This document shows, piece after piece, positions 11,062 to 50,375 of a stretch of 64,000 nt of DNA (its first letter is position 1; every line of letters starts with the position of its first letter). The translations under genes and the position numbers were made by a program. Source of the DNA: Escherichia phage saus132; sequence record NC_047884.1. One strand, 5' to 3'. A model generated the notes under the pieces. The model was not told the DNA's origin, ran no database searches, and was given only the letters and a program-made list of their open reading frames with translations.

Positions 11062-11083
11062 AGCCCCTATATGGGGCTTTTTG
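11062..11083 (+). terminator. Rho-independent terminator
   Basis: AGCCCC-tatat-GGGGCT followed by TTTTT. Confidence 0.6.
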
Positions 11084-11101
11084 TGTATTTGGGATATGTA
11101 A

Positions 11102-11410
11102 ATGAGCGATCAGGTAAATCAAAACTATGAAGGACACGTTGACGACCAGTCCATCATGCTTTGGGAGAAGGAGGGGGAACAAGTAAGACTAACCGTATCT
11201 GAATTTCGTGGGAATCTATACATGGGAATTCGTTACTGGCTCCAAGATATTACTGGAGAGTGGTTTCCAACGAAATCCGGCTTCTCTTTTCCTTATACCC
11301 TAGAAACTACATCACAGCTATTCTACGCTTTTACGCAAATCCTCAGTGAATCCGAGGTCTTGCATGAAGTACAGAAACGAGCTGAAGAACTCAAAGCCAA
11401 GAATGCCTAG
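11102..11410 (+). CDS. PC4-like single-stranded DNA-binding protein
   Basis: VRLTVSEFRGNLYMGIRYWLQD...PTKSGFSF resembles the PC4/Sub1 ssDNA-binding fold signature. Confidence 0.6.
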   Translation: MSDQVNQNYEGHVDDQSIMLWEKEGEQVRLTVSEFRGNLYMGIRYWLQDITGEWFPTKSGFSFPYTLETTSQLFYAFTQILSESEVLHEVQKRAEELKAKNA

Positions 11411-17173: not shown

Positions 17174-19741
17174 TTGAAAATTGCAGTAGTTGATAAAGCT
17201 CTAAATAACACTCGTTATGATAAACACTTCCAGCTTTATGGTGAGGAAGTTGATGTATTCCATATGTGTAACGAGAAGTTATCTGGCCGTTTGCTGAAAA
17301 AGCATATTACAATCGGAACTCCAGATAACCCGTTCGATCCGAACGATTACGATTTTGTTGTACTAGTTGGTGCTGAACCTTTCCTGTATTTCGCAGGTAA
17401 GAAAGGTATCGGTGATTATACTGGTAAACGTGTAGAGCATGGAGGCTATGCCAACTGGATTGCAAGTATTAGTCCAGCTCAGCTACACTTTAAACCTGAA
17501 ATGAAACCAGTTTTCGATGCAACTGTTGAAAGTATTCATGACATTATTAATGGTCGTGAGAAGATTGCAAAAGCTGGTGATTATCGTCCTATTACTGATC
17601 CAGATGAAGCTGAAGAATACATCAAGATGGTGTATAATATGGTTATCGGACCTATCGCATTCGACTCCGAAACCTCAGCTCTGTATGCTCGTGATGGTTA
17701 TCTTCTTGGTGTTTCTATGTCTCACCAAGAGTATCAGGGTGTCTATATTGACTCTGACAGCATTACCGAAGTAGCTGTACATTATCTCCAGAAAATTCTG
17801 GATAGCAAGAATCATCAGATCGTTTTTCATAACTTGAAGTTCGATATGCACTTTTACTCCTATCATCTAGGACTTTCCTTCGAGAAAGCACATAAAGAGC
17901 GTAGACTTCATGATACCATGTTGCAACACTATGTTCTTGATGAACGTCGTGGTACTCACGGCTTGAAATCTCTGGCTATGAAGTATACTGACATGGGCGA
18001 TTATGACTTTGAACTGGATAAGTTCAAGGATGATTATTGCAAGGCACATAAGATCAAAAAAGAGGATTTCAGCTATGATCTGATTCCTTTTGATATTATG
18101 TGGCCATATGCTGCAAAAGATACCGATGCTACTCTGCGTCTGCATAACTTCTTCTTACCAAAAATTGAGAAGAACGAAAAGCTTTGCAGTCTATACTACG
18201 AAGTTCTGATGCCTGGTTGTGTATTCCTGCAACGTGTTGAAGATCGTGGTGTACCGATTTCCGTTGATCGCTTGAAAGAAGCTCAGTATCAGTTGACACA
18301 TCGATTAAATATGGCTCGTGAGAAGCTGTATACTTATCCAGAAGTCGTTCAGCTGGAGAAGAATCAGAACGAAGCGTTTAACCCGAACTCTGTTAAGCAA
18401 CTCCGTGTTCTTCTGTTTGATTATGTTGGTTTGACTCCAACTGGTAAACTGACGGATACAGGTGCAGATTCTACAAATGCAGAAGCTCTGAATGAACTGG
18501 CTACTCAGCACCCGATTGCTAAAACTCTGCTAGAGATTCGTAAGCTGACTAAGCTGATCTCTACTTATGTTGAGAAGATTCTTCTGAGCATCGATGCAGA
18601 TGGTTGCATTCGTACCGGTTTCCACGAACACATGACTACTTCTGGTCGTCTGAGTTCTTCTGGTAAGCTAAACCTGCAACAGTTACCACGTGATGAATCT
18701 ATTATCAAGGGTTGTGTAGTAGCTCCCCCTGGATATCGTGTAATCGCATGGGACTTAACAACTGCGGAAGTTTATTACGCTGCTGTACTGTCTGGTGACA
18801 GAAACATGCAACAAGTATTTATCAACATGAAGAATGAGCCGGATAAATACCCTGACTTCCACTCAAACATCGCACACATGGTATTTAAACTGACCTGTGA
18901 ACCACGTGATGTTAAAAAGCTGTTCCCAGCTCTGCGTCAGGCTGCTAAGGCAATTACCTTCGGTATTCTGTATGGTTCTGGCCCAGCGAAAGTAGCTCAT
19001 TCTGTTAACGAAGCTCTTCTGGAACAGGCTGCTAAGACAGGTGAACCGTTTGTTGAATGTACCGTTGCAGATGCTAAGGACTATATCGAAACTTACTTCG
19101 GTCAGTTCCCTCAGCTTAAGCGTTGGATTGATAAGTGCCACGATCAGATCAAGAACTTTGGATTCATCTATAGTCACTTTGGTCGTAAGCGTCGTCTGCA
19201 CAACATCCATTCCGAAGATCGTGGTGTTCAGGGTGAAGAAATCCGTTCTGGATTTAACGCAATCATTCAGTCTGCATCTTCTGATAGCCTGTTGTTAGGT
19301 GCTATTGATGCTGATGAAGAAATCCTGTCACTGGGTCTAGGAAAAGAGATGAAGATCGTCATGTTGGTTCACGACTCCGTGGTTGCCATTGTACGTGAAG
19401 ATCTGATCGATCAGTATAACGAGATTCTGATTCGTAACATCCAGAAGGATCGTGGTATTAGTATCCCTGGCTGCCCAATCGGTATTGATTCTGATTCTGA
19501 GAAAGGTGGTTCTCGCGACTACTCTTGTGGTAAGATGAAGAAACAGCACCCATCAATCGCTTGTATTGATGATGATGAATATACTCGTTATGTTAAGGGT
19601 GTATTACTCGATGCAGATTTCGAGTATAAGAAGTTAGCTGCAATGGATAAAGAGCATCCAGACCACAGCAAGTACAAGGATGATAAGTTTATTGCTGTAT
19701 GTAAAGATCTGGATAATGTGAAAAGGATTTTAGGTGCTTGA
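17174..19741 (+). CDS. Family A DNA polymerase with 3'-5' exonuclease domain
   Basis: 855 aa, the size remembered for T5 DNA polymerase; Exo I IAFDSET; motif B RQAAKAITFGILYG; motif C LVHDS; TTG start behind RBS AAGGAGA. Confidence 0.95.
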   Translation: MKIAVVDKALNNTRYDKHFQLYGEEVDVFHMCNEKLSGRLLKKHITIGTPDNPFDPNDYDFVVLVGAEPFLYFAGKKGIGDYTGKRVEHGGYANWIASISPAQLHFKPEMKPVFDATVESIHDIINGREKIAKAGDYRPITDPDEAEEYIKMVYNMVIGPIAFDSETSALYARDGYLLGVSMSHQEYQGVYIDSDSITEVAVHYLQKILDSKNHQIVFHNLKFDMHFYSYHLGLSFEKAHKERRLHDTMLQHYVLDERRGTHGLKSLAMKYTDMGDYDFELDKFKDDYCKAHKIKKEDFSYDLIPFDIMWPYAAKDTDATLRLHNFFLPKIEKNEKLCSLYYEVLMPGCVFLQRVEDRGVPISVDRLKEAQYQLTHRLNMAREKLYTYPEVVQLEKNQNEAFNPNSVKQLRVLLFDYVGLTPTGKLTDTGADSTNAEALNELATQHPIAKTLLEIRKLTKLISTYVEKILLSIDADGCIRTGFHEHMTTSGRLSSSGKLNLQQLPRDESIIKGCVVAPPGYRVIAWDLTTAEVYYAAVLSGDRNMQQVFINMKNEPDKYPDFHSNIAHMVFKLTCEPRDVKKLFPALRQAAKAITFGILYGSGPAKVAHSVNEALLEQAAKTGEPFVECTVADAKDYIETYFGQFPQLKRWIDKCHDQIKNFGFIYSHFGRKRRLHNIHSEDRGVQGEEIRSGFNAIIQSASSDSLLLGAIDADEEILSLGLGKEMKIVMLVHDSVVAIVREDLIDQYNEILIRNIQKDRGISIPGCPIGIDSDSEKGGSRDYSCGKMKKQHPSIACIDDDEYTRYVKGVLLDADFEYKKLAAMDKEHPDHSKYKDDKFIAVCKDLDNVKRILGA

Positions 19742-37202: not shown

Positions 37203-37227
37203 AGTTAATTTCTCCTCTTAATAACAA

Positions 37228-37256
37228 TATTATAATAGGATTGGAAAATTTTATCA
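37228..37256 (-). promoter_or_regulatory. Sigma70-like promoter upstream of distal tail protein gene
   Basis: Minus strand TTGATA, 17 bp spacer, TATAAT, then RBS AAGAGGAG. Confidence 0.4.
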
Positions 37257-37284
37257 AGAAATTTTTATTTTTCCATAAAGAAAA

Positions 37285-37305
37285 GGAGGACATAAAGTCC
37301 TCCTC
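37285..37305 (-). terminator. Terminator-like hairpin after tape measure gene
   Basis: Minus strand GGAGGAC-tttat-GTCCTCC followed by TTTTCTTT. Confidence 0.5.
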
Positions 37306-37310
37306 CAGTA

Positions 37311-40300
37311 TTAAGAATTACCAAGTGATTTCAGGGTGGTTCCATTCTCATTAAGAGCCTGTTCCACGGCATCCCTGAAAGCAGCACTGTTACTCGAAGC
37401 AAAGTCTCGGAAGCTAGCCGCATCCATCGTACTGATGTTCAGCACAATAGGTCTACCCGATGTACTCTTTGAAGATCCTTTGAGTTCATCAGTAGGAGTA
37501 GCCTTCATCGGAACCATAGGAGTGATTACTTCGGTACCATGCTCACCCATCTGGTAACTAACTCCAGGGTACATATTACCACCTTCTGCACGAGGTACGA
37601 AAGAGTTCGCATTACCAATCCCTTGATCTCCTCTAATATAAGAAAGTTCTCCTGCGTTAGCCGACATAGAAACGTCCACGTTCTTCTGGCGCTCTCCAAG
37701 AGACAAGTATTGAGCTGTATCAGTACCCGAGTCTCCAATAGAAGACATACCAGATGCAGAGGATGCTTGTGCAAGAGACAATGCACCTGCAACACCTGCG
37801 GCAATCATAAGAGGAATAGACCAGGGGTAGGGAACAGCTGTTGCTGCTTGCATCACCGCTACTGCCGTCTGAATAATGATTTGCTTCTTAGCTGCATCCT
37901 GCTGGATCTTAACCTTTTCCGCTTCCAGTTTCTTGAGCTTAGCTTTAGATGCTTCGGATTTACCGTCACGTTTTTGCTCTGCTGCAATAGCCTGATCAAT
38001 AGCGGATACTTGATTACTTACTCCCATAGCGATCATTGAAGAAACCATCTGCATACCCGCTGCCACAGTGCTAACAGTATCTAAAGATCCCTGAGAGAAC
38101 TGCATCATGGCATTAGTAAGATTGCCTATACTCTGGCCAACTTCCGTTGCTTGGCTATTTAATGCTCCAAGCTTAGAAATAGCTTCGTCGTAAGAGGCCA
38201 TCTGGTTCTGCATATCAGCATACTTCTTATCATCCCCGGATAAACCAGTCGTAGGAGTATAAGTAGCTCCAACAGAAGAACCTACCTGTTGCTGCATCTG
38301 AGCATCTCTCTGTTTTTTAAGCTGTTCTAGGGCTGCTGAAGTTTTATAAATCTCATTACGATATTTAATTTCTTCTTCAGTATTGTCTTTGGATAACTCT
38401 AACTGCTTTTCTGAAATCGATAACCTTTCAGTAAGAATCTGAGACTGGCCAGTGACATTTCTCTCAGTTTGACTAACCTCTAAGGCATCCATGAGAGCTG
38501 ATACATGAGTAGCGGTAGCTTGTTTCTCTGCTTCCACGAGTTCTCTATTTATCTGTGCTTGAGCACGCCTAGATTGTTCAGCCTCTTTCTGTTTACCAGC
38601 TTGTCTAGAGTACCACGCATACTTTTCTTTCTCAATAGTCAGTTCTAGTTTTAACTGTGCTAAACGATACTGGGTATCTGTCATAGTACGGTTATTCAGG
38701 AGAGCAATTTCACGATCAACACCAAGAATCTTATCCGTATAGTCCTTAACTTTCTTCTGAGCTTCCATGTCCTGGTTAGTAATTTTGATACGTTCTAACT
38801 GAACCTTAGCTATTTCATTCTCAATTGCCTTGTTACCCTTGTTAGTTTCTAGGACACGCTTAAGGGCTGCTTCCTGTTCTTCTAACTGTTGGATTTCTAG
38901 ACGTCTACCCGCTTCCTGTGCTTTCTCTTTATCCTTGGTCTGGTTGTACACTTCGGCAATCTTTTGCTGAACTTCTAACTGATTTTTAGTCTCATTACTA
39001 GTTAATTTTACATAACCAGCAAGAGCTTGTGAGGCAGTCTTCATCTCACTAAGAGTATTATACCCTAAGTTCAGACTCTTAACATACTCATCAGCATTTT
39101 TACCAGTACCAGCAGATAGAGACTCAATAGTCTTAATCGTATCTGATAGGGATGCACTAGTTTTAGCCGCAGTATTAGTATTCTGAGCGATGTTCTGTAT
39201 ATCGTTAGCTAAATCACTAGCAGTTTTCTTAGCCTGATCATATGCTTTCTGCTGTTCCGTCAGTCCTTTCAGAGTTGCGGAGTTAAAGTCATAAACCGCA
39301 TCAGGGTCATTCATATCCTTCTGCAGATTAATCTGCTTCTGAAATTCTGGATTAGTCTTAGCAGCCGCAGCACCAGCAGCTTGATACGCAGATTTCCAAG
39401 CATTAAGGTTTTCAGTAGAGTCATCAACTTCTTTACCTAACCTTGCTACCTGTAGTCCCATAGCTGCGGTTTCTTCTACAAACTTTTTGTTAGCTTCGGA
39501 AGAACCTATGCGCACTCCCCCTACTTCAAATCCCCCAGCAGCTAATCCAACAGGCATCCCCTCACCCACTAATCTAATAGCGGCAGCAGTACTAGCATCT
39601 GCTTGGGACATACGTTTATCAAACTCAGTCTTTAGTTTATTACGCTTATCCAGAGACTCTTTATACATATCAAGAGCTTTATTATATCCTTCCTCGGAAG
39701 CGGAAAGACTTAAAGCTACAGCACCAACGTTAGTTGGGTCAATCTGACGGTTAGTTTCTTCTTGTGCTCTAGCAGCAGAAGCCGAGATAGATGCTTGAGA
39801 AGTATAGAATACTGCGTTAATAGAATCAATTACCGGCCCTAAATACTTAGCAGCAGCCTGTTGAACCTTTCTTAGTGCAGCATCAGCGTTAGCAGCAAAC
39901 TGTTCCCATGGAGTTGCACGGAGTACGTCATCCAAGTAGCCGAAACGTTTAGTAGATTCAGCAATTACTGCGTTAGCATATGCTTGTTGCTTTTGGAAAG
40001 TGGAAAGACTATTGACGTTATATGTGATACCTGTGTTAGCAGCATTTAACTGTTTAACGTAGTCAGCGTAAGCATCATTAAGACGAATAGTAACACCAAG
40101 TTCGTCCAGAAGTTCGATTTCTTGTTTAGATACACCTTTGATTACACGGTTAAGTGCATCAGTCATATCAACACCAAGAACAGCAGCAGCACGACGAGCT
40201 ACTAGACCAAATTTATTAAGTTGTTCAGCATCGAATCCATATGCAGAAGCAGAGGATGCCTGTCTCATTGCTTCTTCGAAGGAGATTGCATAACCAGCAG

Positions 40301-41018
40301 CCTCTTGTAGAGATCTAGCTAGAGTTTGTACCGGAGTACCTGTTTGAGTACCTACAATAGTACCGAACTTCTCCAGACGGTTTAACTGGTCACCCATCTT
40401 AAGTTGTTCGAATGCAGATTGTAGAACGAACACGTTAGATGCGATAGCAGCATACATAAGAGGTAGAGAACCACCAACTTTAGCCATTGCTGCGAAGTCA
40501 CGAGTAGCACCACGTGCAGAACCAGATGTATTACCTAGAGCACGACTAGCACGACCTGCGGATGTGGTAGTATCATTGAAGCCTCTAGTAGTACCCGACA
40601 AAACACGGTTTGTATCGTATAATCTATCTTGAACTTTTTCAGTTGCAGCAGCTACATCGTTACCCATCGCCTTAACAGATTTACCAACATGTGTAAATCC
40701 AGACTCTAGCTTATCGGATACCTCAATCATAGCAATAGCAAGGTCATCTAACTTAGCACCAATACTATCTATAGATTTGGTGATACCCATCATACCTCTG
40801 CTAGCCTGCATTTTAGTTAGGCTTTTAGCTGCTCTATCCGCTGCCCTCTCAATGGAGTAAAGAGTTTTGGGCATTTTTCCTAGCTGCTCATTAGTCAGTT
40901 CGGAAGCGGCAGCAGCATTTTCTAACGCATCGGAAACGTTCTCAATAGATTTTGCAGTACGGGTTGCCCCTTTCTGCTTTACATCTATAAGTAGTTCTCG
41001 TATTAGCTTATCAGTCAT
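37311..41018 (-). CDS. Tail tape measure protein (T5 pb2-like)
   Basis: 1235 aa, largely helical/coiled-coil; between chaperone ORFs and distal tail protein. Confidence 0.85.
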   Translation of the reverse strand: MTDKLIRELLIDVKQKGATRTAKSIENVSDALENAAAASELTNEQLGKMPKTLYSIERAADRAAKSLTKMQASRGMMGITKSIDSIGAKLDDLAIAMIEVSDKLESGFTHVGKSVKAMGNDVAAATEKVQDRLYDTNRVLSGTTRGFNDTTTSAGRASRALGNTSGSARGATRDFAAMAKVGGSLPLMYAAIASNVFVLQSAFEQLKMGDQLNRLEKFGTIVGTQTGTPVQTLARSLQEAAGYAISFEEAMRQASSASAYGFDAEQLNKFGLVARRAAAVLGVDMTDALNRVIKGVSKQEIELLDELGVTIRLNDAYADYVKQLNAANTGITYNVNSLSTFQKQQAYANAVIAESTKRFGYLDDVLRATPWEQFAANADAALRKVQQAAAKYLGPVIDSINAVFYTSQASISASAARAQEETNRQIDPTNVGAVALSLSASEEGYNKALDMYKESLDKRNKLKTEFDKRMSQADASTAAAIRLVGEGMPVGLAAGGFEVGGVRIGSSEANKKFVEETAAMGLQVARLGKEVDDSTENLNAWKSAYQAAGAAAAKTNPEFQKQINLQKDMNDPDAVYDFNSATLKGLTEQQKAYDQAKKTASDLANDIQNIAQNTNTAAKTSASLSDTIKTIESLSAGTGKNADEYVKSLNLGYNTLSEMKTASQALAGYVKLTSNETKNQLEVQQKIAEVYNQTKDKEKAQEAGRRLEIQQLEEQEAALKRVLETNKGNKAIENEIAKVQLERIKITNQDMEAQKKVKDYTDKILGVDREIALLNNRTMTDTQYRLAQLKLELTIEKEKYAWYSRQAGKQKEAEQSRRAQAQINRELVEAEKQATATHVSALMDALEVSQTERNVTGQSQILTERLSISEKQLELSKDNTEEEIKYRNEIYKTSAALEQLKKQRDAQMQQQVGSSVGATYTPTTGLSGDDKKYADMQNQMASYDEAISKLGALNSQATEVGQSIGNLTNAMMQFSQGSLDTVSTVAAGMQMVSSMIAMGVSNQVSAIDQAIAAEQKRDGKSEASKAKLKKLEAEKVKIQQDAAKKQIIIQTAVAVMQAATAVPYPWSIPLMIAAGVAGALSLAQASSASGMSSIGDSGTDTAQYLSLGERQKNVDVSMSANAGELSYIRGDQGIGNANSFVPRAEGGNMYPGVSYQMGEHGTEVITPMVPMKATPTDELKGSSKSTSGRPIVLNISTMDAASFRDFASSNSAAFRDAVEQALNENGTTLKSLGNS

Positions 41019-41039
41019 TTATTTTTCCCAATAAAAAAG

Positions 41040-41064
41040 GCTCTGGGCAAATCACCCAGAGCCA
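41040..41064 (-). terminator. Hairpin plus T-run immediately upstream of tape measure start
   Basis: Minus strand GGCTCTGGGTGATTTGCCCAGAGCC followed by TTTTTTATTGGGAAAAATAAATG. Confidence 0.55.
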
Positions 41065-41098
41065 AGCCTCATCGTGGAACGCCCATTGGAGGAAACTT

Positions 41099-41467
41099 TT
41101 ACTGAGCTCGAGATCTAGCATGCGGTTTAATGTTCGGAGTGCGACCATTTTGTTTACCATGCTTCTCGGCTCTCTTACGAGCTGCATCTACAGCTTTCGA
41201 ATCAAATATATTGATTATGTGTAGAACAAACTCTTTCTCTATGGGATCAGTAATCCCATAGATATCAAATAAAACACCTAGTGCACTTTTATCTTTTCCT
41301 ATAAAAATAGGAAAGTCACCTGGTATGAAACAGTCAATAAGACTGTTATAAATATTCATACTAGTAGATACAATAGGTGGAAAATCTTCGAGTTCAACAG
41401 GCATTGCCTTAGGATCAGGTTCAATACCTAGCGACTCACAAAGCATTAAATATTGTTGTTTTGTCAT
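41099..41467 (-). CDS. Putative tail assembly chaperone (second ORF)
   Basis: Small ORF directly upstream of tape measure gene. Confidence 0.45.
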   Translation of the reverse strand: MTKQQYLMLCESLGIEPDPKAMPVELEDFPPIVSTSMNIYNSLIDCFIPGDFPIFIGKDKSALGVLFDIYGITDPIEKEFVLHIINIFDSKAVDAARKRAEKHGKQNGRTPNIKPHARSRAQ

Positions 41468-41528
41468 TTTAGATGCTGATGATTTAATGCATTTATCAGC
41501 AAAATCGGCAACAGCATCTAGTAACTGC

Positions 41529-41933
41529 TTACGCTTTTGAGCTACGAAAAGTGTCTAAGTGGAACACTGTCTGGTTGATCCAAGAATCAAACGCAGCAGA
41601 GTTCTGCATAAGCATGATAGCGTTATCGCGACTAAATGGAACTTCAGTAGTAGGATCAGCTTCAGTTTCGATAAGCATCAGTTTCTCAACGTCTCCAATA
41701 GTCAAGCCAGTCCAGCCAGCAATTGCAGTATCAACGAAAGCTTCAATAAACTTATCATCGTCCTGAACTTGAATCATAGTACCGTTAACCCACTCGTCAC
41801 GCTTAGCGGAAGAGATAACACGCTTAGATGCAGCACGAGACATGTAGTTCAGTTGCAGCTTGAAGTTAGGCATACCTGGGTAAGCCAGCTCAATAGTACG
41901 AGTTTCAAGGGTAATATCTTTTAAATTGATCAT
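41529..41933 (-). CDS. Putative tail assembly chaperone (first ORF)
   Basis: Small ORF between tail tube region and tape measure gene. Confidence 0.45.
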   Translation of the reverse strand: MINLKDITLETRTIELAYPGMPNFKLQLNYMSRAASKRVISSAKRDEWVNGTMIQVQDDDKFIEAFVDTAIAGWTGLTIGDVEKLMLIETEADPTTEVPFSRDNAIMLMQNSAAFDSWINQTVFHLDTFRSSKA

Positions 41934-42829
41934 TTCTTTATTTCTCCAAAGAAGTCGATTCTTACCGGATCAGAGTCTGCAGTAGGGATTACATCCCATT
42001 CAACTCTGTATATATCCGAGAATTGTAGGCGTTTTGTTATACGTGCTGAAGGGAAGTCAATCGAAATATGTCCATTCCGGATGGTTAATGGTATGTCAGT
42101 TTCGGGTTCAATATTATAAAACATATCACCAGCAAATCGCTTAGTGTAGTAAAATGCAATTGTTGCCGAAGCATTCATTTCATTAACATAAGCTCTCTTA
42201 TTATTATATATTTTGTTTATGTCAAATACGCTTTTATCTTCTCTCCAAGAACATTGTTGCTGGAATGACATAGAAGCGGATAAAAGAGCTGGTAAAACAT
42301 TACTGTTGGTAGATACTCTAGGAGGACTATATGACATAACTTCACCCTGAACAATAGAACCAGCAGGAGTAAAAGTAGACACCTCAGAGAACTTACCAGA
42401 TTCAATTCCTACGTTTAGGATAGGAACGCTTTTGTCTAGAGAAAAGTCTACAGTAGATACATAGCAATTCTCAAAGTACACACAGTTATTATTTTTATTA
42501 ACTATGTATATATTAAACATTGTTGGCTCAATATTTGTACTATAAAGTGGTAGTAAGAATGTGTTACCCTCTCGGTCAAAGCCCATCCATTCAAAGAAGT
42601 TAGCTTCAGTAAGGGTATTACTAAAATTTATAGCCAGCGATATTGAAGATGGAGTTTGTGCATTAATAATAGAGTCAGCATAGTTGGTTCTACGATGGAT
42701 AGTCCTACGAAGAGTTTTAAATTCCTCATAGGACGTATTGATATCGTAATTTGACAGGGCATCAAAATGATAAGCCCTGCCATCATACTCAACTATAACT
42801 TTTGACTCCCTCATTAGAGAGTAGTACAT
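41930..42829 (-). CDS. Minor tail protein (T5 p140-like)
   Basis: 299 aa ORF directly downstream of tail tube gene. Confidence 0.5.
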   Translation of the reverse strand: MYYSLMRESKVIVEYDGRAYHFDALSNYDINTSYEEFKTLRRTIHRRTNYADSIINAQTPSSISLAINFSNTLTEANFFEWMGFDREGNTFLLPLYSTNIEPTMFNIYIVNKNNNCVYFENCYVSTVDFSLDKSVPILNVGIESGKFSEVSTFTPAGSIVQGEVMSYSPPRVSTNSNVLPALLSASMSFQQQCSWREDKSVFDINKIYNNKRAYVNEMNASATIAFYYTKRFAGDMFYNIEPETDIPLTIRNGHISIDFPSARITKRLQFSDIYRVEWDVIPTADSDPVRIDFFGEIKK

Positions 42830-42833
42830 TTAA

Positions 42834-44243
42834 TTAGCCACCAGAAGCAGTAACTGTAATGCTCTTAGTACCTTCTACACCAGAACCATCTTTAGCTACA
42901 GCTTTCACAGTAACTGCACCAGTCTTAGAAGCATCAGCGGTCAGTAAACCAGAAGTTGCATCAATAGTAGCAGCAGTACCAGAGGAAATAGACCAAGTTA
43001 CTTCCTTATTAGTAGCTTCAGCAGGTAAAACGTCTACAGTCATCTGAAGAGTTGCGCTATTCTTAACGGAAGTTGCATCGCCCGCAGATTTAACAGTAAT
43101 ACCTGTTACCTTAACCGGAGCTGCTTTACCACCGTCACCAGTTGCAATCAGATTTGCAATAGTAGTTTTGGTGTACTTATTAGAGAAACCAAGATAACCT
43201 TCATCACCAGTATCCAGATCAGTAGGAATTGCTTTGAACTCTACAGAAGTACCAAGTACATCGTCAGTCTCAATAGTTGGGATGTTAACGTGAGCTTGCT
43301 TAGCAACTAGAACAGCGGCTGGGCGCTCATCATCATATTCACCGCCAAGTACTAGAGCGATTTCGAAACGGTTAACTACCTTCAGGGTCTTAATCAGATC
43401 TTTATACAGATCCATAGAACCTAGAGCTTTATCGTTAAGATACGCAGTTAGAGAACCAGTTAATTCGAATGCACCAGTAAATGAACCGATTGGGATGTTA
43501 ACACGGGACATGACGTTAGGAGTCAGATAGGTGATGTTGTTGTTAATTGTAAAACTACCACCAGTGATCGGAATGTCATATGCCTTACCAGTATCCATAT
43601 CCTTAATTTTGAGGATAGTCAGTTTGTTCTTGATGTAAGAACCCTGGATAGTCATGTAAGTTTCATCATCAATACCTACAGTATCAGGATCAAATGGAGC
43701 AGCGTCCAGAGGGATCAGCTGGTTACCATTACCAGACCAAGTTACACGACCAATATCCTCAATATCAACGTTAACTTCTGCCTGGTTGATCTGGCAAGAG
43801 TCAATATAGCTCCATGCTTTGTCAGTAAGAATGTAGATGTGCAGCATAGCCAACTCATGATAAGAGTTATCTTTAAAGTTAACCATGAAGTTAGCTTCAT
43901 TATTATGCGCACCTGTGTCTCCCTCAAGGTTTAACGCTTTACCACTAGAAAGAGCATGCCATAACATGTAGTCGGGAACAATCTGTTTATTAGAGGTTTT
44001 ATCCTTGTATGGCAGAATATAAGTAGAAAAACTCCACTCAGCCGCATTCAAGGAATCGTTAAAACGTTTAGAACCACGAGTAGGACGCGGACCAGCTTCG
44101 TTAACAGTAATATCTGTTGAGTTACTGTCCTGACCCCAAGAAATATCATCCTGAACTAGAATCTCTTGCGTGTTGGTCTTATCGTGACCAGTCTTAACCG
44201 TAGACACGAAGATTCGAGTATTACGTAATAGTTGTAAAGACAT
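42834..44243 (-). CDS. Major tail tube protein with C-terminal Ig-like domain (T5 pb6-like)
   Basis: 469 aa; C-terminal KVTGITVKSAGDATSV...VTWSISSG...VTVKAVAKDG is Big_2/Ig-like. Confidence 0.8.
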   Translation of the reverse strand: MSLQLLRNTRIFVSTVKTGHDKTNTQEILVQDDISWGQDSNSTDITVNEAGPRPTRGSKRFNDSLNAAEWSFSTYILPYKDKTSNKQIVPDYMLWHALSSGKALNLEGDTGAHNNEANFMVNFKDNSYHELAMLHIYILTDKAWSYIDSCQINQAEVNVDIEDIGRVTWSGNGNQLIPLDAAPFDPDTVGIDDETYMTIQGSYIKNKLTILKIKDMDTGKAYDIPITGGSFTINNNITYLTPNVMSRVNIPIGSFTGAFELTGSLTAYLNDKALGSMDLYKDLIKTLKVVNRFEIALVLGGEYDDERPAAVLVAKQAHVNIPTIETDDVLGTSVEFKAIPTDLDTGDEGYLGFSNKYTKTTIANLIATGDGGKAAPVKVTGITVKSAGDATSVKNSATLQMTVDVLPAEATNKEVTWSISSGTAATIDATSGLLTADASKTGAVTVKAVAKDGSGVEGTKSITVTASGG

Positions 44244-44269
44244 TTAATTATTTTCTCCTAATCTGTAAC

Positions 44270-44755
44270 TTATCTGCGAAGTGACCTACGTGGAGGCTGA
44301 TACCTCACTGTTACATTTATTTCTGCTAAACCATATGGGGCCAGTAGACCCTCATCTGTACTAACTGATGTAATGCTCATATCAGTCGCCTCACATGGGA
44401 AGGTCGATCCATTAGGTTTACTAACAGTATATTCTAAATTTCCACCTGTGTCAATAACGGTTTTTATATCCGCTACGAGTTTTTCAAGTTGCTCTTGAAT
44501 GTCTGTTTTCTCTTTATCGTACACCAGGATTGGAAGTTCTAAAAACATCCACTGTTGGCCTGAAGGAAGATACTGCCCAGTTTCAGTTCCGATATGGACT
44601 GCCACATAAGGAAATTCTCGGATTTCCTCGAATTTATAAGTTTGACGAGAAACGTTTCCATAAAGGTTATTGAAATACTCATCAGGTTGTGAACCATCCA
44701 TTTGTGTGGCGATTCGGTCAACCACTGCTTGTGCAATACTTGTTCTGTGATCCAT
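44270..44755 (-). CDS. Tail terminator protein (T5 p142-like)
   Basis: 161 aa ORF immediately upstream of tail tube gene. Confidence 0.5.
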   Translation of the reverse strand: MDHRTSIAQAVVDRIATQMDGSQPDEYFNNLYGNVSRQTYKFEEIREFPYVAVHIGTETGQYLPSGQQWMFLELPILVYDKEKTDIQEQLEKLVADIKTVIDTGGNLEYTVSKPNGSTFPCEATDMSITSVSTDEGLLAPYGLAEINVTVRYQPPRRSLRR

Positions 44756-44758
44756 TTA

Positions 44759-45526
44759 TTAGGTTCCTTGATTAACCTTGATTTTATATCTAGAGTGAAT
44801 CAGGTCTCTTGCAGCTTTTGCGATTGCTTCCCCAATAAGTTTTTGAGGGTTTCGAGCGCCAGGGTAAGGTCGTAGAGAAAGTCTTCGATATGTAGAAACT
44901 GCGGGGTTGAACACAGAGTAAGGACGAACCATATAGTTATACGTCACATTCAGCTCTGGAGCACCTTTACTAGTTTCTGCATCACGTAACATAACATCTT
45001 TAATCTTTAAGGAGTTAGCAAAGCGACCAGTTCTGAACTTCAATGGTGCCCCTGCTTTTTTCATATCCTTGATTAAGTATTCCTTAGCTACTATCTCAAG
45101 AATAGCACGCATGTTACTATTTGATACGAAACGACCGGAAGCACCTGTTACTGCACCTGAATAGCCATCTTCAGTATCTCTAGGATCTCCAAAGTTTACC
45201 TGAACTCTACCGGTAGAACGTTTTTTACCTACAGCAGAACGTTTACCTGCGGTTGCTTGAATTAACTTCTCTAGAGCGCCTAAATCACCAGAAAGATCTA
45301 AGTTAGAAGAAACAGCCTTCAGTATAGATGCTGTCCTAACATTTAATAAGTCTTGTGATACTGGTTTTGAGAATTTGAAAGATACCTGTGCAACTGTGCC
45401 ATCTCTTGTGGGATCCTTCAAACCAGTCTCAACTGTATATACAACAGTATTCTTATTATTCTCAGATCGTCCTGCAGTATCTAGCTGCTCTTTAATAATT
45501 TGTCTAGCTAGATCAGAAAGAGCCAT
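44759..45526 (-). CDS. Neck / tail completion protein
   Basis: 255 aa ORF in head-tail joining region. Confidence 0.45.
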   Translation of the reverse strand: MALSDLARQIIKEQLDTAGRSENNKNTVVYTVETGLKDPTRDGTVAQVSFKFSKPVSQDLLNVRTASILKAVSSNLDLSGDLGALEKLIQATAGKRSAVGKKRSTGRVQVNFGDPRDTEDGYSGAVTGASGRFVSNSNMRAILEIVAKEYLIKDMKKAGAPLKFRTGRFANSLKIKDVMLRDAETSKGAPELNVTYNYMVRPYSVFNPAVSTYRRLSLRPYPGARNPQKLIGEAIAKAARDLIHSRYKIKVNQGT

Positions 45527-46038
45527 TACACTCTCCTATAGACTTCGATGATTGTACGAATATGTTCTGGAATACCAGACTTAGTATTGTTAAACGTAAC
45601 TGTCTCACCACCAATAGTCTTGGCTTGACGATAATCTTGCTTATGCCAGTGATCTACTAACAGACATGCTGCCAGCTTAAGATCTTCAGGCATTGGATTG
45701 AAACCACCTTGGGTATATTCTACATCCATATACCCTTCAGGAGGATTAAACTTAAGAAGAATAACACCATCAGGGTACAATTTAAACTGTTCCGGGTCTA
45801 TTTCATTCTCGTTAATAGTCATTTTTGTAATAGATGTGGCTGAGGGGGAACTCAGAAAATATTTCCTACGGCTAGGTTTTGTAGTGATTAATTGATCTAC
45901 CGCATCTGCATCATCCATACCTAGAAGGCTTGTAATCAGCGTATTGGCAGCTTTAATCATCATCTCAACCTGAGTTTCCATATCAGGTCGCTTTGCATTA
46001 GCATATAGTCTGTAGTCTTCAACAGTGATGATTTGCAT
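45526..46038 (-). CDS. Head completion / head-tail adaptor protein
   Basis: 170 aa ORF after capsid gene; preceded by hairpin-ATTGGGAAAAATAAATG module. Confidence 0.45.
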   Translation of the reverse strand: MQIITVEDYRLYANAKRPDMETQVEMMIKAANTLITSLLGMDDADAVDQLITTKPSRRKYFLSSPSATSITKMTINENEIDPEQFKLYPDGVILLKFNPPEGYMDVEYTQGGFNPMPEDLKLAACLLVDHWHKQDYRQAKTIGGETVTFNNTKSGIPEHIRTIIEVYRRV

Positions 46039-46057
46039 TTATTTTTCCCAATAAAAA

Positions 46058-46079
46058 AGGAGAGCCGAAGCTCTCCTTA
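46058..46079 (-). terminator. Hairpin plus T-run after major capsid gene
   Basis: Minus strand AAGGAGAGC-ttcg-GCTCTCCTT followed by TTTTTTATTGGGAAAAATAAATG. Confidence 0.55.
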
Positions 46080-46097
46080 TCGGCTGAAAAGCCTGTA

Positions 46098-47474
46098 TTA
46101 AGATGCAGCGTAAGTACCGGATACAACGCCATTTGCAAAGTAACGTTGCAGGTTAACACGCTGAGTAACGTAGTATGCGTCACGCTGTTTGCCAGCTTGG
46201 CGCTCACGTTCAACAGTAACAGCACGCTGACGCGGCATTACGAAGTTATCTTTATAAACAATAACTGCGAATTCTGCAGAAGCAGCCTTAGCTGGGAAGT
46301 ACTCAGAAACTACAACTGGCAGACCGTAAATACGACCAACCTGACCCTGCAGTTTAACAGCATCGTTACCAACCTGGGCAACATCCTGCCATTCTTCATC
46401 TTCCAGCAGATCGTAGTAAGCATCCATAGATACGATCAGTACCAGTTTGCTCAGTTTCAGACCGTGACGGCCCAGTTTACGACGCAGCTTGGAGATAGTT
46501 TTAGCAGTTACCAGAACAGAACCGTCAGCTTTAGCTTCGGTAACAACCTTAGCACCATCATCAGCAGCCAGTTTCAGCAGACCCTTAGGCTGACCAGTAC
46601 CATTACCGGACATGAAAGCTTCTTCGATAGAAACAGCGTGTGCTTCGATCAGACGCTTACGCAGCAGAGGCAGCAGGGAGAAGATTGCATCTTCTTCAGT
46701 TTCATCAGTGATGAAGGATTTAGCAGCCAGCTTGTAAGTTTTGAAGCTGATTTCAGTCAGTTGACCTTTAACTTCGTCACCAACAGTTTCGTCAGTACCG
46801 AATTTGGAAGCATCTACCCAAGTAGCACGACCAGCTTCTGGTTCAACGAGCATAGTAAGGATTTTGCTGGACATTGGCAGTTCATCGAACAGTGCACCAA
46901 CTACCAGTTCCTTCTGCAGGTCACGGATAATACGGGTAGAGAAGATAGTTTCGTATGCTTCGCTAGACATGGAAACGGAAGAAGAACCGTTAACAGCTTT
47001 AACGTGAGCCTTACCGTGTTCAGTTTCGAATACGTCCTTCTCCATCATATAAGACAGAAGAACCAGTTTCTCAACTTCATCTTCGAAAGCATCCTGAGTG
47101 CCATAAAGAGCTTTAGCTACGCTATCACCAACGAAGGAACGACCTTCACGAGCTGCTAACAGAGACTTAATTTCGTCCTGAAGACCAACGATGGTTTCCT
47201 GCTGCTTTTCTACAGTCTGTGCAAACAGTTCTGCGCTCTTCTTAGACTTCTCGTCCAGGTTCTTAACCAGATCCAGAGCTTCTTCCAGACGCTTACGGTC
47301 TTCACCAACAGCTTTAGATACTAGGTCATTCATACGAGACAGTTCTTTTTCTTCCTGCTCTTCACGCAGACGCTTAGCTTCCGCAGCTTTCTGAGCAGCA
47401 GTCAGACCTTCCAGAGATTTAGCCAGATCACCCAGACCAAGTTCTTCCTTCAGCTTATTAATATCAATAGTCAT
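46098..47474 (-). CDS. Major capsid protein with N-terminal scaffolding (delta) domain (T5 pb8-like)
   Basis: 458 aa; coiled-coil-rich N-terminal ~160 aa then HK97-fold-like body; precedes protease in transcription order. Confidence 0.85.
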   Translation of the reverse strand: MTIDINKLKEELGLGDLAKSLEGLTAAQKAAEAKRLREEQEEKELSRMNDLVSKAVGEDRKRLEEALDLVKNLDEKSKKSAELFAQTVEKQQETIVGLQDEIKSLLAAREGRSFVGDSVAKALYGTQDAFEDEVEKLVLLSYMMEKDVFETEHGKAHVKAVNGSSSVSMSSEAYETIFSTRIIRDLQKELVVGALFDELPMSSKILTMLVEPEAGRATWVDASKFGTDETVGDEVKGQLTEISFKTYKLAAKSFITDETEEDAIFSLLPLLRKRLIEAHAVSIEEAFMSGNGTGQPKGLLKLAADDGAKVVTEAKADGSVLVTAKTISKLRRKLGRHGLKLSKLVLIVSMDAYYDLLEDEEWQDVAQVGNDAVKLQGQVGRIYGLPVVVSEYFPAKAASAEFAVIVYKDNFVMPRQRAVTVERERQAGKQRDAYYVTQRVNLQRYFANGVVSGTYAAS

Positions 47475-49824: not shown

Positions 49825-50348
49825 TATAAGAACCTTGCGAATCCTGATTTAGTTTCAGTCTTGACTTGTGTCTTTTCTTGAGGATTCTGTAGCTTTTCCT
49901 TTTGTTTAAGAACCCATGCCTTCTGCTTATTAGCAGAAAAAAGGGGAGGTTCCTTAGTGTACACCTTATGTAATAGTTGGTGATGGTGGACACAAAGGGT
50001 AACAGTGTCATCTACTAGCTCATGCCTATATCTTTCATAGAATGCCGTCCTATTTGAGAGGACTGTTTCTTCGTCAGTGAAATCCAATTGGAGTTCTTTA
50101 GCAAATTTTTTAACTAGTAGAGACACTGTATGGTAATGATGAAGCTCTAATTCTTCACCACAACCACAGATTTCGCAGCGATCGGCTTTTTTATATTGAC
50201 TTTTTATACCGTCTCGCATGAGTGATATAGCATCACGTTTATATTTTACATTTCCTGCCACAGTATTCTCCTCAACTGTATGAATATAGTATACATAATC
50301 ATGTCGAATTTGTAAAGGGGATTTTAAAATGCAGGAATGGGATACCAA
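49824..50348 (-). CDS. HNH-type endonuclease-like protein between terminase and portal (start uncertain)
   Basis: CEICGCGEELELHHYH...CVHHHQLLH Cys/His cluster. Confidence 0.5.
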   Translation of the reverse strand: MVSHSCILKSPLQIRHDYVYYIHTVEENTVAGNVKYKRDAISLMRDGIKSQYKKADRCEICGCGEELELHHYHTVSLLVKKFAKELQLDFTDEETVLSNRTAFYERYRHELVDDTVTLCVHHHQLLHKVYTKEPPLFSANKQKAWVLKQKEKLQNPQEKTQVKTETKSGFARFL

Positions 50349-50375
50349 CTGAGTAGTATCCCATCCTATACTTAT

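Follow-up and report, generated by a model that had tools for sequence, protein, structure and literature searches.

Leaky terminators that balance phage gene expression have been documented in T7, phiX174 (T_J, T_F, T_G and T_H) and LUZ7, where read-through is step-wise; in T7, the terminator T-phi lies after capsid gene 10. The late region of the T5-like phage (Epseptimavirus) analyzed here resembles these systems in that a hairpin and U-tract follow the gene of an abundant structural protein, that downstream genes are predicted to be reached by read-through, and that mRNA levels are predicted to be graded along one operon. It differs from T7 in relying on host sigma70 polymerase, where T7 has a phage enzyme, and from all three in that the ribosome-binding site abuts the U-tract without a spacer, the same tail occurs at two places, and a conserved intragenic promoter is predicted to restore transcription between two terminators. 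Putative terminators have been annotated at the same two positions, the capsid/head-completion and the small ORF/tape-measure junctions, in Escherichia phage vB_EcoS_HdH2 (MK373796) and in Klebsiella phage Shiner (PQ283208), where both also carry annotated ribosome-binding sites. These records are silent on the near-identity of the tails and on their family-wide conservation, and the record of the present phage, MF431736, annotates neither terminator.

We analyzed a stretch of 64,000 nucleotides (the window), which is the last 64 kb of, and 100% identical to, the 121,986-bp genome taken from MF431736.1 (chee130_1). A first-pass annotation had pointed to an identical 25-nt module, CATTTATTTTTCCCAATAAAAAAGG, preceding two late genes, and this description was confirmed: both copies are exact, the order hairpin, TTTTTT and start codon reads the same on the minus strand at both sites, and the ORF positions place the copies directly before the tape-measure (site A) and head-completion (site B) starts (Table 1). 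No other match was found at three or fewer mismatches, and dinucleotide-preserving shuffles gave an expectation of 0.00 matches. When the rest of the genome was searched, as that annotation had proposed, there were still only two copies, and the next-nearest matches carried 6/25 mismatches. At site A, the hairpin GGCTCTGGGTGATTTGCCCAGAGCC is followed by TTTTTT, ATTGGGAAAAATAA and the ATG of the tape-measure ORF. At site B, the hairpin (AA)GGAGAGCTTCGGCTCTCC(TT) leads into the same tail and the ATG of the head-completion ORF, 59 nt after the capsid gene stop. The GGGA and its 7-nt A-rich spacer thus stand before the ATG of Pfam-confirmed genes (matches were obtained for the capsid, the head completion protein, the tape-measure N and C domains, and p140) as expected of a ribosome-binding site, and relatives carry clearer Shine-Dalgarno (SD) sequences at the same place, namely GGAG/GAGG in My1 and Vibrio phages and AGGAGG in 70E37-4. 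An Rfam covariance-model search of window positions 40800-46400 (E ≤ 5) gave no relevant match. A dispersed repeat or mobile element of the REP or MITE kind was rejected, as there are only two copies per genome; outside T5-like phages, the 21-mer occurred at background rate (35 matches in 596 Gb of bacterial genomes).

Table 1. Features around the two module copies (+ strand coordinates of the window; terminators and promoters are predictions)
Feature	Coordinates	Strand	Details
Module copy A	41016..41040	-	CC stem end 41040-41039; TTTTTTATT U-tract 41038-41030; GGGA Shine-Dalgarno 41029-41026; AAAATAA spacer 41025-41019; ATG of tape-measure gene 41018-41016
Module copy B	46036..46060	-	CC 46060-46059; U-tract 46058-46050; GGGA 46049-46046; spacer 46045-46039; ATG of head-completion gene 46038-46036
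Terminator A hairpin	41039..41063	-	GGCUCUGGG-UGAUUUG-CCCAGAGCC, -19.1 kcal/mol
Terminator B hairpin	46057..46078	-	AAGGAGAGC-UUCG-GCUCUCCUU; C(UUCG)G tetraloop closes stem
Terminator C hairpin	37282..37306	-	After tape-measure gene; tail UUUUCUUUAUGGAAAAAUAAAAA only partly module-like (6/25 mismatches)
Major capsid protein gene	46098..47474	-	458 aa, Pfam Phage_capsid; upstream of terminator B
Head completion/adaptor gene	45526..46038	-	170 aa, Pfam PF24163; T5 p144; first after terminator B
Tape measure gene	37311..41018	-	1235 aa, Pfam TMP_N + TMP_C; T5 pb2; first after terminator A
122-aa ORF	41099..41467	-	Upstream of terminator A; Proteus phage PM135 homologue annotated "putative tape measure chaperone"
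Promoter-like site	44426..44454	-	TTGACA-17-TATACT, inside tail-terminator gene, 211 nt before tail-tube ATG
Promoter-like site, distal-tail genes	37229..37257	-	TTGATA-17-TATAAT, just downstream of terminator C
Terminator-like hairpin and promoter-like site	50288..50366	-	Hairpin 50366..50335; TTTACA-17-TATACT 50316..50288

The features of stem, U-tract and compensatory change support both sites as canonical predicted intrinsic (Rho-independent) terminators. The 9-nt U-tract UUUUUUAUU lies immediately 3' of both stems. In the predicted folds, stem A has 10-11 bp; stem B has 7 bp (18-nt core, -12.0 kcal/mol) or 9 bp with the AA..UU extension, the extended 22-nt hairpin with its tail reaching -16.1, and the z-scores of the two hairpins against shuffles were -5.2 and -4.1. 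Stem A shows compensatory changes, with UCU/AGA in the window and CUA/UAG in Shiner (GGCCUAGGG/CCCUAGGCC), and further compensated variants occur in PM135 and locus L139. The core of stem B, GGAGAGCUUCGGCUCUCC, is invariant in Epseptimavirus, T5, Sugarlandvirus, Kamaji and Novosibvirus and one G-C pair longer in Pectobacterium phage My1, and Vibrio phages carry other hairpins in its place. A search of the literature for transcript-end data on T5-like phages found none.

T5 late genes have sigma70 promoters (PMC7472727). The sigma70-type promoter-like sites of the region lie away from the modules, one intragenic (44454..44426) and one after the tape-measure gene (37257..37229). The intragenic site is the next one conserved across relatives, and its hexamers were conserved in 9/9 Demerecviridae examined, with a variable spacer. 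A further hairpin/promoter pair (50288..50366) lies upstream of the portal-protease-capsid block. A sigma70 promoter in or next to the module, with hexamers 16-18 bp apart, was also considered and rejected, as none is present and none would fit the geometry. A location of site A directly after the tail-tube gene was likewise dismissed: after the tail-tube and p140 genes come two small ORFs, and it is the second of these, the 122-aa ORF, that precedes the site, which thus lies between putative tape-measure chaperone genes and the tape-measure gene. Between the stop of this ORF and terminator A lies a conserved non-coding block, UUUCCUCCAAUGGGCGUUCCACGAUGAGG (41067..41095, minus strand), which is shared all the way from T5-like to Vibrio phages and occurs once in the genome.

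For the abundant shell and tube proteins, terminators and promoters are arranged in step with the copy numbers in the virion. A virion contains 775 capsid copies and 12 copies of the adaptor p144, and its tail tube consists of 120 subunits in 40 trimeric rings (PMC11313276). Terminator B is located at the step down from 775 to 12, where an attenuator would be expected, and terminator A at that from the 120 tail-tube subunits to the tape measure, which fills one tube lumen. The exception is p140 (3 copies per virion), whose gene lies upstream of terminator A; because it shares one transcription unit with the tail-tube gene (120), the ratios are not a matter of transcription level alone. A putative attenuator role for both sites is supported by the logic of the sequence.

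We then compared the junctions among relatives. Both are present in 29 T5-like IMG/VR loci; the 23-nt core CCTTTTTTATTGGGAAAAATAAA was present at both sites in 16 of the 29, and the exact 25-mer at both sites in three. In most Tequintavirus genomes, 3 additional nt precede the tape-measure ATG, and most Tequintavirus loci read AAAACATG or AAAATATG at site A. The 25/25 identity is specific to this Epseptimavirus lineage, the 23-nt core being more widely shared. At both junctions, a terminator with a similar ribosome-binding site behind it recurs in Sugarlandvirus, Serratia phage Kamaji, Novosibvirus, Pectobacterium phage My1 and Vibrio phages. When late-gene upstream regions were compared pairwise within a genome (105-120 pairs), the two post-terminator sites were the most similar pair in 6/7 genomes. 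In a comparison of 14 such regions across four genera, the 22 nt before the head-completion and tape-measure starts were the best conserved (19.7 and 17.3 matches; 9.8-14.8 for the others), and when only the SD and spacer (13 nt) were compared across genera, the tape-measure site was mid-range and the head-completion site ranked top of the 14. In Proteus phage VTCCBPA139, the sole megablast match was a 59-nt tract from the first head-completion codons through the module and terminator B. Both predicted terminators, with the similar ribosome-binding sites that adjoin them, are kept across Demerecviridae, Vibrio phages among them.

We consider it likely that the 25-mer marks an overlap of terminator end, ribosome-binding site and start codon belonging to a leaky-terminator mechanism, with tails that are old and under purifying selection. 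It would then be no separate element; the last two stem pairs and U-tract, GGGA with its 7-nt spacer, and ATG would be packed in maximally compact form. Late sigma70 transcription would run leftward (minus strand) through the portal, protease and capsid genes, and terminator B would halt most polymerases, yielding plentiful capsid mRNA that ends in a stable UUCG hairpin. A read-through minority would transcribe the head-completion, tail-completion and tail-terminator genes, with ribosomes loading just after the U-tract. The promoter inside the tail-terminator gene would boost transcription for the tail-tube gene, p140 and the two small ORFs, terminator A would lower it again before the tape-measure gene, and terminator C and a new promoter would follow that gene. 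Because only 14 nt separate U-tract and ATG and no promoter-like site was found there at either site, the genes downstream would be transcribed solely by read-through, and leaky termination is thereby implied; we infer both partial termination and the size of the drop. The tails may be near-identical through a common origin or because they converged early, with purifying selection on U-tract, SD and spacing then keeping them so. Against this explanation, both terminators look strong on paper, and if termination were nearly complete, the essential downstream genes would need antitermination or another transcript supply. In addition, constraints on the U-tract, SD and A-rich spacer alone leave identity at all 25 positions unexplained.

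That identity could instead stem from recent copying of one junction onto the other in this lineage, and would otherwise mean nothing beyond generic terminators and ribosome-binding sites. In fact, exact 25/25 identity is confined to the window's clade (the window, L004-L006 and L024) and stops exactly at the beginning of the two different stems. However, Tequintavirus too has the 23-nt core at both sites, the two sites of Kamaji, Sugarlandvirus and Novosibvirus likewise have near-identical tails, and A-versus-B scores across genera equal those within genomes. The A/B similarity must be older than these genera, because site A of Kamaji is identical to site B of PM135. A 23-nt tract between non-homologous stems and genes is also a poor conversion substrate. 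Recent copying is therefore unlikely, and the cross-genus comparison favors old shared sequence, probably under purifying selection, over ongoing gene conversion. Alternatively, the common tail UUAUUGGGAAAAAUAAAUG might bind a single factor acting in trans, for instance a translational repressor or activator of the phage, an RNA chaperone or an RNase; co-regulation of the head-completion and tape-measure genes would account for the sites staying alike. The pair does stay alike even where the sequence has changed, with UAUGGAGAA at both sites in Vibrio phage VPT02 and AUUUGGAG and AUUUGAGG in My1, and the top rank of the head-completion SD and spacer fits as well. Within the tail there is also a short inverted repeat, UUUAUU-GGGAAA-AAUAAA, whose loop holds the SD, and an equivalent is kept in My1 and in site B of VPT02 (UUGUU/AACAA), but a T-run followed by an A-rich spacer yields such repeats automatically. 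We consider this shared operator quite unlikely: no candidate factor is known, T5 is viable although an insertion has removed the SD half of the module from its site A, and, because site A of one genus resembles site B of another as much as its own, lineage-specific co-evolution with a factor is unneeded in the enterobacterial genera.

The insertion in T5 bears on another explanation, in which the shared sequence is, or adjoins, the recognition site of free-standing CapR/T5orf172-type genes, as would explain inserts at both sites. In T5, a ~760-nt insert splits module A right after TTTTTTATT, and in three other T5-like genomes (L014, L021 and L023) an insert of ~650 nt occupies site B. The proteins of the two inserts have CapR-homology and zinc-finger domains in common and are homologous (36% identity, E = 3e-34), the T5orf172 match of the site B protein being marginal (20.3 bits; cut-off, 20). 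The modules of the genomes with site B inserts show small changes, with GGG reduced to GG and stem B shortened in L014 and L023 (three insert-bearing loci were counted as having a shortened stem B) and ATTATTAGG in L021. Nevertheless, the L021 variant also occurs in insert-free L016, and the insert lies inside the module at A but ~45 nt upstream of it at B, where its 3' end immediately precedes the mini-hairpin and terminator. Genes of this type can generally settle safely in the intergenic gaps that follow terminators, and since the great majority of genomes, which have no insert, still conserve the module, it needs a function of its own; a recognition site is thus very unlikely. A re-initiation of transcription for the downstream gene, with the A/T-rich tail as promoter or UP element, is extremely improbable. 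It could draw on terminator C, whose tail, UAUGGAAAAAUAAAAAUUUC, resembles the module, stands just upstream of the strong TTGATA-17-TATAAT promoter and occupies the AT-rich -43 region position typical of T5 promoters. At sites A and B, however, there is no promoter-like hexamer pair, and TTGGGA plus 17 nt, as read from the sequence, gives no acceptable -10 at either. With the ATG 14 nt past the U-tract, a -10 element would fall within the coding sequence, and transcription would begin too late to include the start codon.

Of the "conserved attenuator/restart cassette" that the first-pass annotation had proposed, the family-wide conservation and the placement of a predicted terminator at a drop in copy number stand, whereas restart in the transcriptional sense does not: ATTGGGAAAAATAAATG consists of SD, spacer and start codon, with no promoter, and "restart" is translational. 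The modular theory of phage evolution describes conserved "linker" or boundary sequences between phage gene modules. The present sites resemble them in being short, non-coding, located at the head / connector-tail / tape measure and tip borders, and far better conserved than the flanking genes, but terminator and ribosome-binding function is enough to explain the conservation. The finding is ordinary in kind, and others have already annotated the sites as putative terminators in related GenBank records. The preferred reading, a leaky terminator overlapping a ribosome-binding site, would be an ordinary way to make little protein after an abundant one, here unusually well conserved.

We found that the 25-mer CATTTATTTTTCCCAATAAAAAAGG, a 25-nt module, occurs twice as an exact copy in the window, at site A before the tape-measure gene and at site B between the capsid and head-completion genes (see the table), whereas a third copy was absent from the window even at three mismatches and chance predicts none. 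The whole 121,986-bp genome was rebuilt from MF431736.1 (Bacteriophage T5-like chee130_1; Demerecviridae, Epseptimavirus), the last 64 kb of which equals the window at 100% identity. The remaining genome, which the first-pass annotation had proposed to search, added no further copy: only the two known ones were present in 121,986 bp, and the next-best matches had 6/25 mismatches. The exact repeat is therefore real and non-random. A wider dispersed motif was also considered and rejected, as a fuzzy whole-genome search returned only terminator C, behind the tape-measure gene (6 mismatches), and one intragenic site.

All genes around both sites lie on the minus strand, on which the module reads CC (the last two stem pairs), UUUUUUAUU, the Shine-Dalgarno (SD) sequence GGGA, the spacer AAAAUAA, and AUG. 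The stems of the preceding hairpins A and B are unlike in sequence, and that of hairpin B carries a C(UUCG)G tetraloop. ORFs and Pfam matches bore out the placement just upstream of the tape-measure and head-completion starts, the latter following the capsid gene: the site B AUG lies 59 nt from the end of the 458-aa capsid gene, and the site A AUG lies 80 nt from the end of a 122-aa ORF whose homologue in PM135 is annotated as a tape-measure chaperone. The order of hairpin end, U-tract, SD, spacer and AUG indicates that the repeat is an intrinsic terminator tail fused to an SD, spacer and start codon. A role as promoter was ruled out by geometry and a consensus scan, and an Rfam search gave no match to a known RNA family for the module. 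Regarding the earlier proposal of an attenuator/restart cassette, the attenuator half appears reasonable from sequence and fits both conservation and operon logic, whereas the restart half fails, since what follows the terminator is a ribosome-binding site (RBS) and not a transcriptional signal.

Features discussed in the text, with window positions unless a locus is named (L-numbers are loci retrieved from IMG/VR and other records)
Feature	Position	Strand	Details
Module, site A	41016-41040	-	
Module, site B	46036-46060	-	
Hairpin A	41063..41039	-	GGCUCUGGG-UGAUUUG-CCCAGAGCC; -19.1 kcal/mol, predicted fold
Hairpin B	46078..46057	-	(AA)GGAGAGC-UUCG-GCUCUCC(UU); 18-nt core -12.0 kcal/mol, predicted fold
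Tape-measure protein	AUG at 41018	-	1235 aa; Pfam TMP_N and TMP_C
Head-completion/adaptor protein	AUG at 46038	-	170 aa; PF24163; T5 p144
29-nt non-coding block	41067-41095	-	UUUCCUCCAAUGGGCGUUCCACGAUGAGG; between 122-aa ORF stop and terminator A
Near-consensus sigma70 promoter	44454..44426	-	TTGACA-17-TATACT, TAAAAAC upstream; inside tail-terminator gene
Terminator C region	37203-37310	-	after tape-measure gene; tail UUUUCUUUAUGGAAAAAUAAAAAUUUC, partial likeness to module
Third compact terminator-RBS-ATG junction	11064-11104 (11078)	+	GCCCCTATATGGGGC TTTTTGTGT ATTTGGGATATGTAAATG; plus-strand gene block
ORF with CxxC...HH...HH motifs (HNH-like)	49825-50262	-	between terminase and portal genes
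CapR-type insert, T5, site A	L022 9130-9974		
CapR-type insert, site B	L014 3490-4200; also L021, L023		
Extra ~250-aa gene, Vibrio Demerecviridae	L085 14414-15172; L086 14462-15223; L088 10145-10882		between terminator A and tape measure
21-mer, marine siphovirus	L038 9511-9531; L069		IMG/VR 3300032255_000005, 42.6 kb
Tails, Sugarlandvirus Shiner			site A ATTGGAAAAAATCATG; site B ATTGGGTAAAATATG
Tails, Serratia phage Kamaji			site A ATTGGGTAAAATAAATG; site B ATTGGGAAAAATTCATG
Tails, Novosibvirus PM135			site A ATAGGTGAAATTCATATG; site B ATTGGGTAAAATAAATG
Tails, Pectobacterium My1			site A ATTTGAGGTAATAAAATG; site B ATTTGGAGTAAATATG
Tails, Vibrio phage VPT02			site A CGTATGGAGAAAACAATG; site B GTTTATGGAGAACAAGATG

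Compact junctions of terminator, RBS and ATG are not confined to these two sites: besides the third one in the window, others were seen beyond it at record positions 19435 and 28068 (minus strand). The design is thus a habit of this genome, and among its compact junctions only A and B have identical tails. Terminator C is followed by TTGATA-17-TATAAT, a strong promoter for which the terminator tail acts as the AT-rich upstream region; downstream of this promoter, AGAGGAG is the SD of a 204-aa distal tail gene.

Among 29 T5-like IMG/VR loci used for close comparison, site B nearly always reads ...GGAGAGCTTCGGCTCTCC TTTTTT ATTGGGAAAAATAAATG, T5 itself included. The site A tail is the same as the site B tail in the window's clade and has 3 extra nt in most Tequintavirus (...AAATAAAA(C/T)ATG), so that the family-wide common core is 23 nt; this core was present at both sites in 16 of the 29 loci and the exact 25-mer in three. 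Some variants were seen at site B, where T13 replaces T6 in L030 and ATTATTAGG replaces ATTGGG in L016 and L021, suggesting that the SD half tolerates some change. More distant genera retained, at both places, a terminator directly followed by a similar RBS. Stem A showed compensated changes (UCU/AGA in the window vs. CUA/UAG in Shiner), and stem B was unchanged across enterobacterial genera except in My1, which has one added G-C pair. Vibrio phages have a different hairpin at the stem B position, and their terminator A precedes an extra ORF of ~250 aa (no Pfam match) rather than the tape measure, indicating that it is the terminator, rather than the tape-measure gene, with which the RBS-like tail travels. 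The extra gene inherits a site B-like RBS in VPT02 and Chester; in 70E37-4, another terminator-like hairpin stands ahead of the tape-measure gene. Others have annotated putative terminators at both positions in the record of phage HdH2, and terminators together with RBSs in that of Shiner.

The likeness between the two sites could be maintained by selection or renewed by gene conversion. The post-terminator upstream regions were the most similar pair in 6 of 7 genomes (105-120 late-gene upstream pairs each), a ranking to which the common U-tract contributes. When the 22 nt preceding each of 14 late genes were compared over four genera, those of the head-completion and tape-measure genes ranked highest in conservation (19.7 and 17.3 matches; the others scored 9.8-14.8), while for the SD and spacer alone (13 nt) the head-completion gene still came first (10.7) and the tape-measure gene fell mid-range (8.7). 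Concerted evolution should leave an excess of within-genome similarity, and none was found among the four enterobacterial genera: A and B resembled each other as much across genera as within a genome, with Kamaji A equal to PM135 B. From these comparisons we conclude that the likeness is probably old and held by selection, rather than made by continuing gene conversion; the exact 25/25 match of this lineage may be an ancestral state or stem from a small local event.

The module might also have had a significance beyond T5-like phages. The 21-mer TTTTTTATTGGGAAAAATAAA was found in 47 stretches in IMG/VR, all but three of them in contigs of ~96-122 kb that are T5-like or T5-like in look, and most overlapping confirmed T5-like loci; two permuted 21-mers of the same composition had no match there. 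Two of the three exceptions lie in one marine siphovirus contig and the third in a Paenibacillus sequence (L079, equal to L235), in which the 21-mer follows a hairpin. In the marine phage, a different hairpin, GCCGCTTTTAAGCGGC, precedes the identical 23 nt TTTTTTATTGGGAAAAATAAATG, and these lead into the phage's own, unrelated 639-aa tape-measure gene. However, unrelated bacterial genomes (596 Gb) also yielded 35 matches to the true 21-mer, of which 15 follow hairpins, meaning that this AT-rich terminator tail recurs by chance at a rate covering both outliers. Because of this background rate, we judge the marine match to be chance or convergent, and the matches outside T5-like phages were treated as background.

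A consensus scan revealed no promoter-like site between terminator A or B and its downstream ATG, so that transcription of the head-completion and tape-measure genes must depend on read-through. In the stretch from terminator B to terminator A, a promoter-like site lies inside the tail-terminator gene, 211 nt from the tail-tube ATG in the window (~200-211 overall); its hexamers were kept in 9/9 Demerecviridae examined, Vibrio phages included, with a variable spacer. Strong sigma70 promoters are known to drive the late genes of T5 (PMC7472727). The operon would accordingly run from a promoter through portal, decoration, protease and capsid genes to terminator B, then through adaptor, tail completion and tail terminator to the intragenic promoter, which would drive the tail tube, p140 and two small ORFs up to terminator A; the tape measure would follow, and then terminator C with its promoter and the distal tail genes. 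Published counts per virion are 775 capsid, 12 adaptor, 6 tail-terminator and 120 tail-tube subunits, 3 copies of p140, and one tape-measure bundle in the lumen (PMC11313276). Both step-downs, at terminators B and A, fit these copy numbers, and p140, at only 3 copies, shows translation to be a further determinant. For T7, phiX174 and LUZ7, the balancing of expression by leaky terminators has been documented. Terminators A and B both look strong on paper, as predicted folds, and we infer partial termination, and its extent; a literature search for transcript ends or coverage in T5-like phages came back empty. In the tRNA region beyond the window, a 61-aa CDS (MF431736.1, 38028-38213) is annotated as 'antitermination protein Q', probably an automatic label, which, if correct, would be relevant to how the late terminators are read through.

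Upstream of terminator A, we found a 29-nt non-coding block with two anti-SD-like motifs (UUCC/CCUCC). It was kept in T5-like phages, Sugarlandvirus, Kamaji, Novosibvirus and My1 and shortened in Vibrio phages, and its distance to the upstream stop varies by non-multiples of 3. Rfam gave no match for the block, and a loose IMG/VR pattern scan gave mostly chance matches and, among the matches listed, at least one new lineage (L139). A repeated nick or recognition site was rejected, as the block is single-copy in the genome and the BF23 paper offers no consensus for a nick site. It is improbable, in our estimation, that terminator A and the block form a larger conserved RNA element, for which two forms can be imagined. 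The block could pair with the module U-tract and SD, masking the tape-measure RBS on read-through transcripts; alternatively, it could form the main part of a small RNA that derives from the 3' UTR and has its end at terminator A. With regard to masking, the window block is predicted to pair across hairpin A with the U-tract and SD, the predicted SD unpaired probability being 0.17 at site A vs. 0.69 at site B and rising to 0.58 ± 0.13 at site A when the block was shuffled. In relatives, shuffling unmasked the SD weakly in Kamaji, but not in Shiner, PM135 or VPT02. For a 92-nt segment of the window, the minimum-energy fold contained the outer helix, as did RNAalifold with a hand-made alignment (a MAFFT alignment misplaced the hairpin and gave nothing useful), but the helix was lost on extending the sequence, and the minimum-energy folds of Shiner, Kamaji, PM135 and My1 lacked it. 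If masking did occur, it would add a second lock, at the level of translation, on a protein of which the phage needs very few copies, and the shared module could be a common 'receiver' that is masked at site A but open at site B.

Both sites have also received genes. T5 has a CapR/T5orf172-type gene at site A, where it splits the module directly after TTTTTTATT; three other T5-like genomes have homologous genes at site B, and these inserts come with a hairpin of their own as well as a long, perfect palindrome. The proteins share a CapR-homology domain and a treble-clef zinc finger (site A vs. site B, 36% identity, E = 3e-34), with a marginal T5orf172 match in the site B protein. Elsewhere in the region, the HNH-like ORF has a counterpart annotated as 'nicking endonuclease' in relatives, while at this place the window's own record annotates only a 141-nt CDS. 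Ahead of its ATG, the frame of the 122-aa ORF stays open for ~29 codons (41446-41560, minus strand), overlapping the end of a 134-aa ORF in the +1 (or -2) frame, an arrangement that might reflect a programmed frameshift of the tail-chaperone type.

Intra-operon intrinsic terminators with adjacent RBSs belong to a well-known kind of feature, and these are already annotated as putative terminators in relatives; no new kind of regulatory system is revealed. The new content is modest: the twin tails, the depth of their conservation, the intragenic promoter between them, and the conserved block at site A. T5-like phages are used in biocontrol and capsid display, and for their annotation and engineering the results point to two short sequences best left intact and to two intergenic sites that naturally accept inserted genes. 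Together, the three terminators and the two or three promoters, all conserved family-wide and one promoter lying within a gene, provide a testable map of how mRNA levels in a T5-like late operon could be set for proteins required at 775, 120, 12 and few copies per virion.
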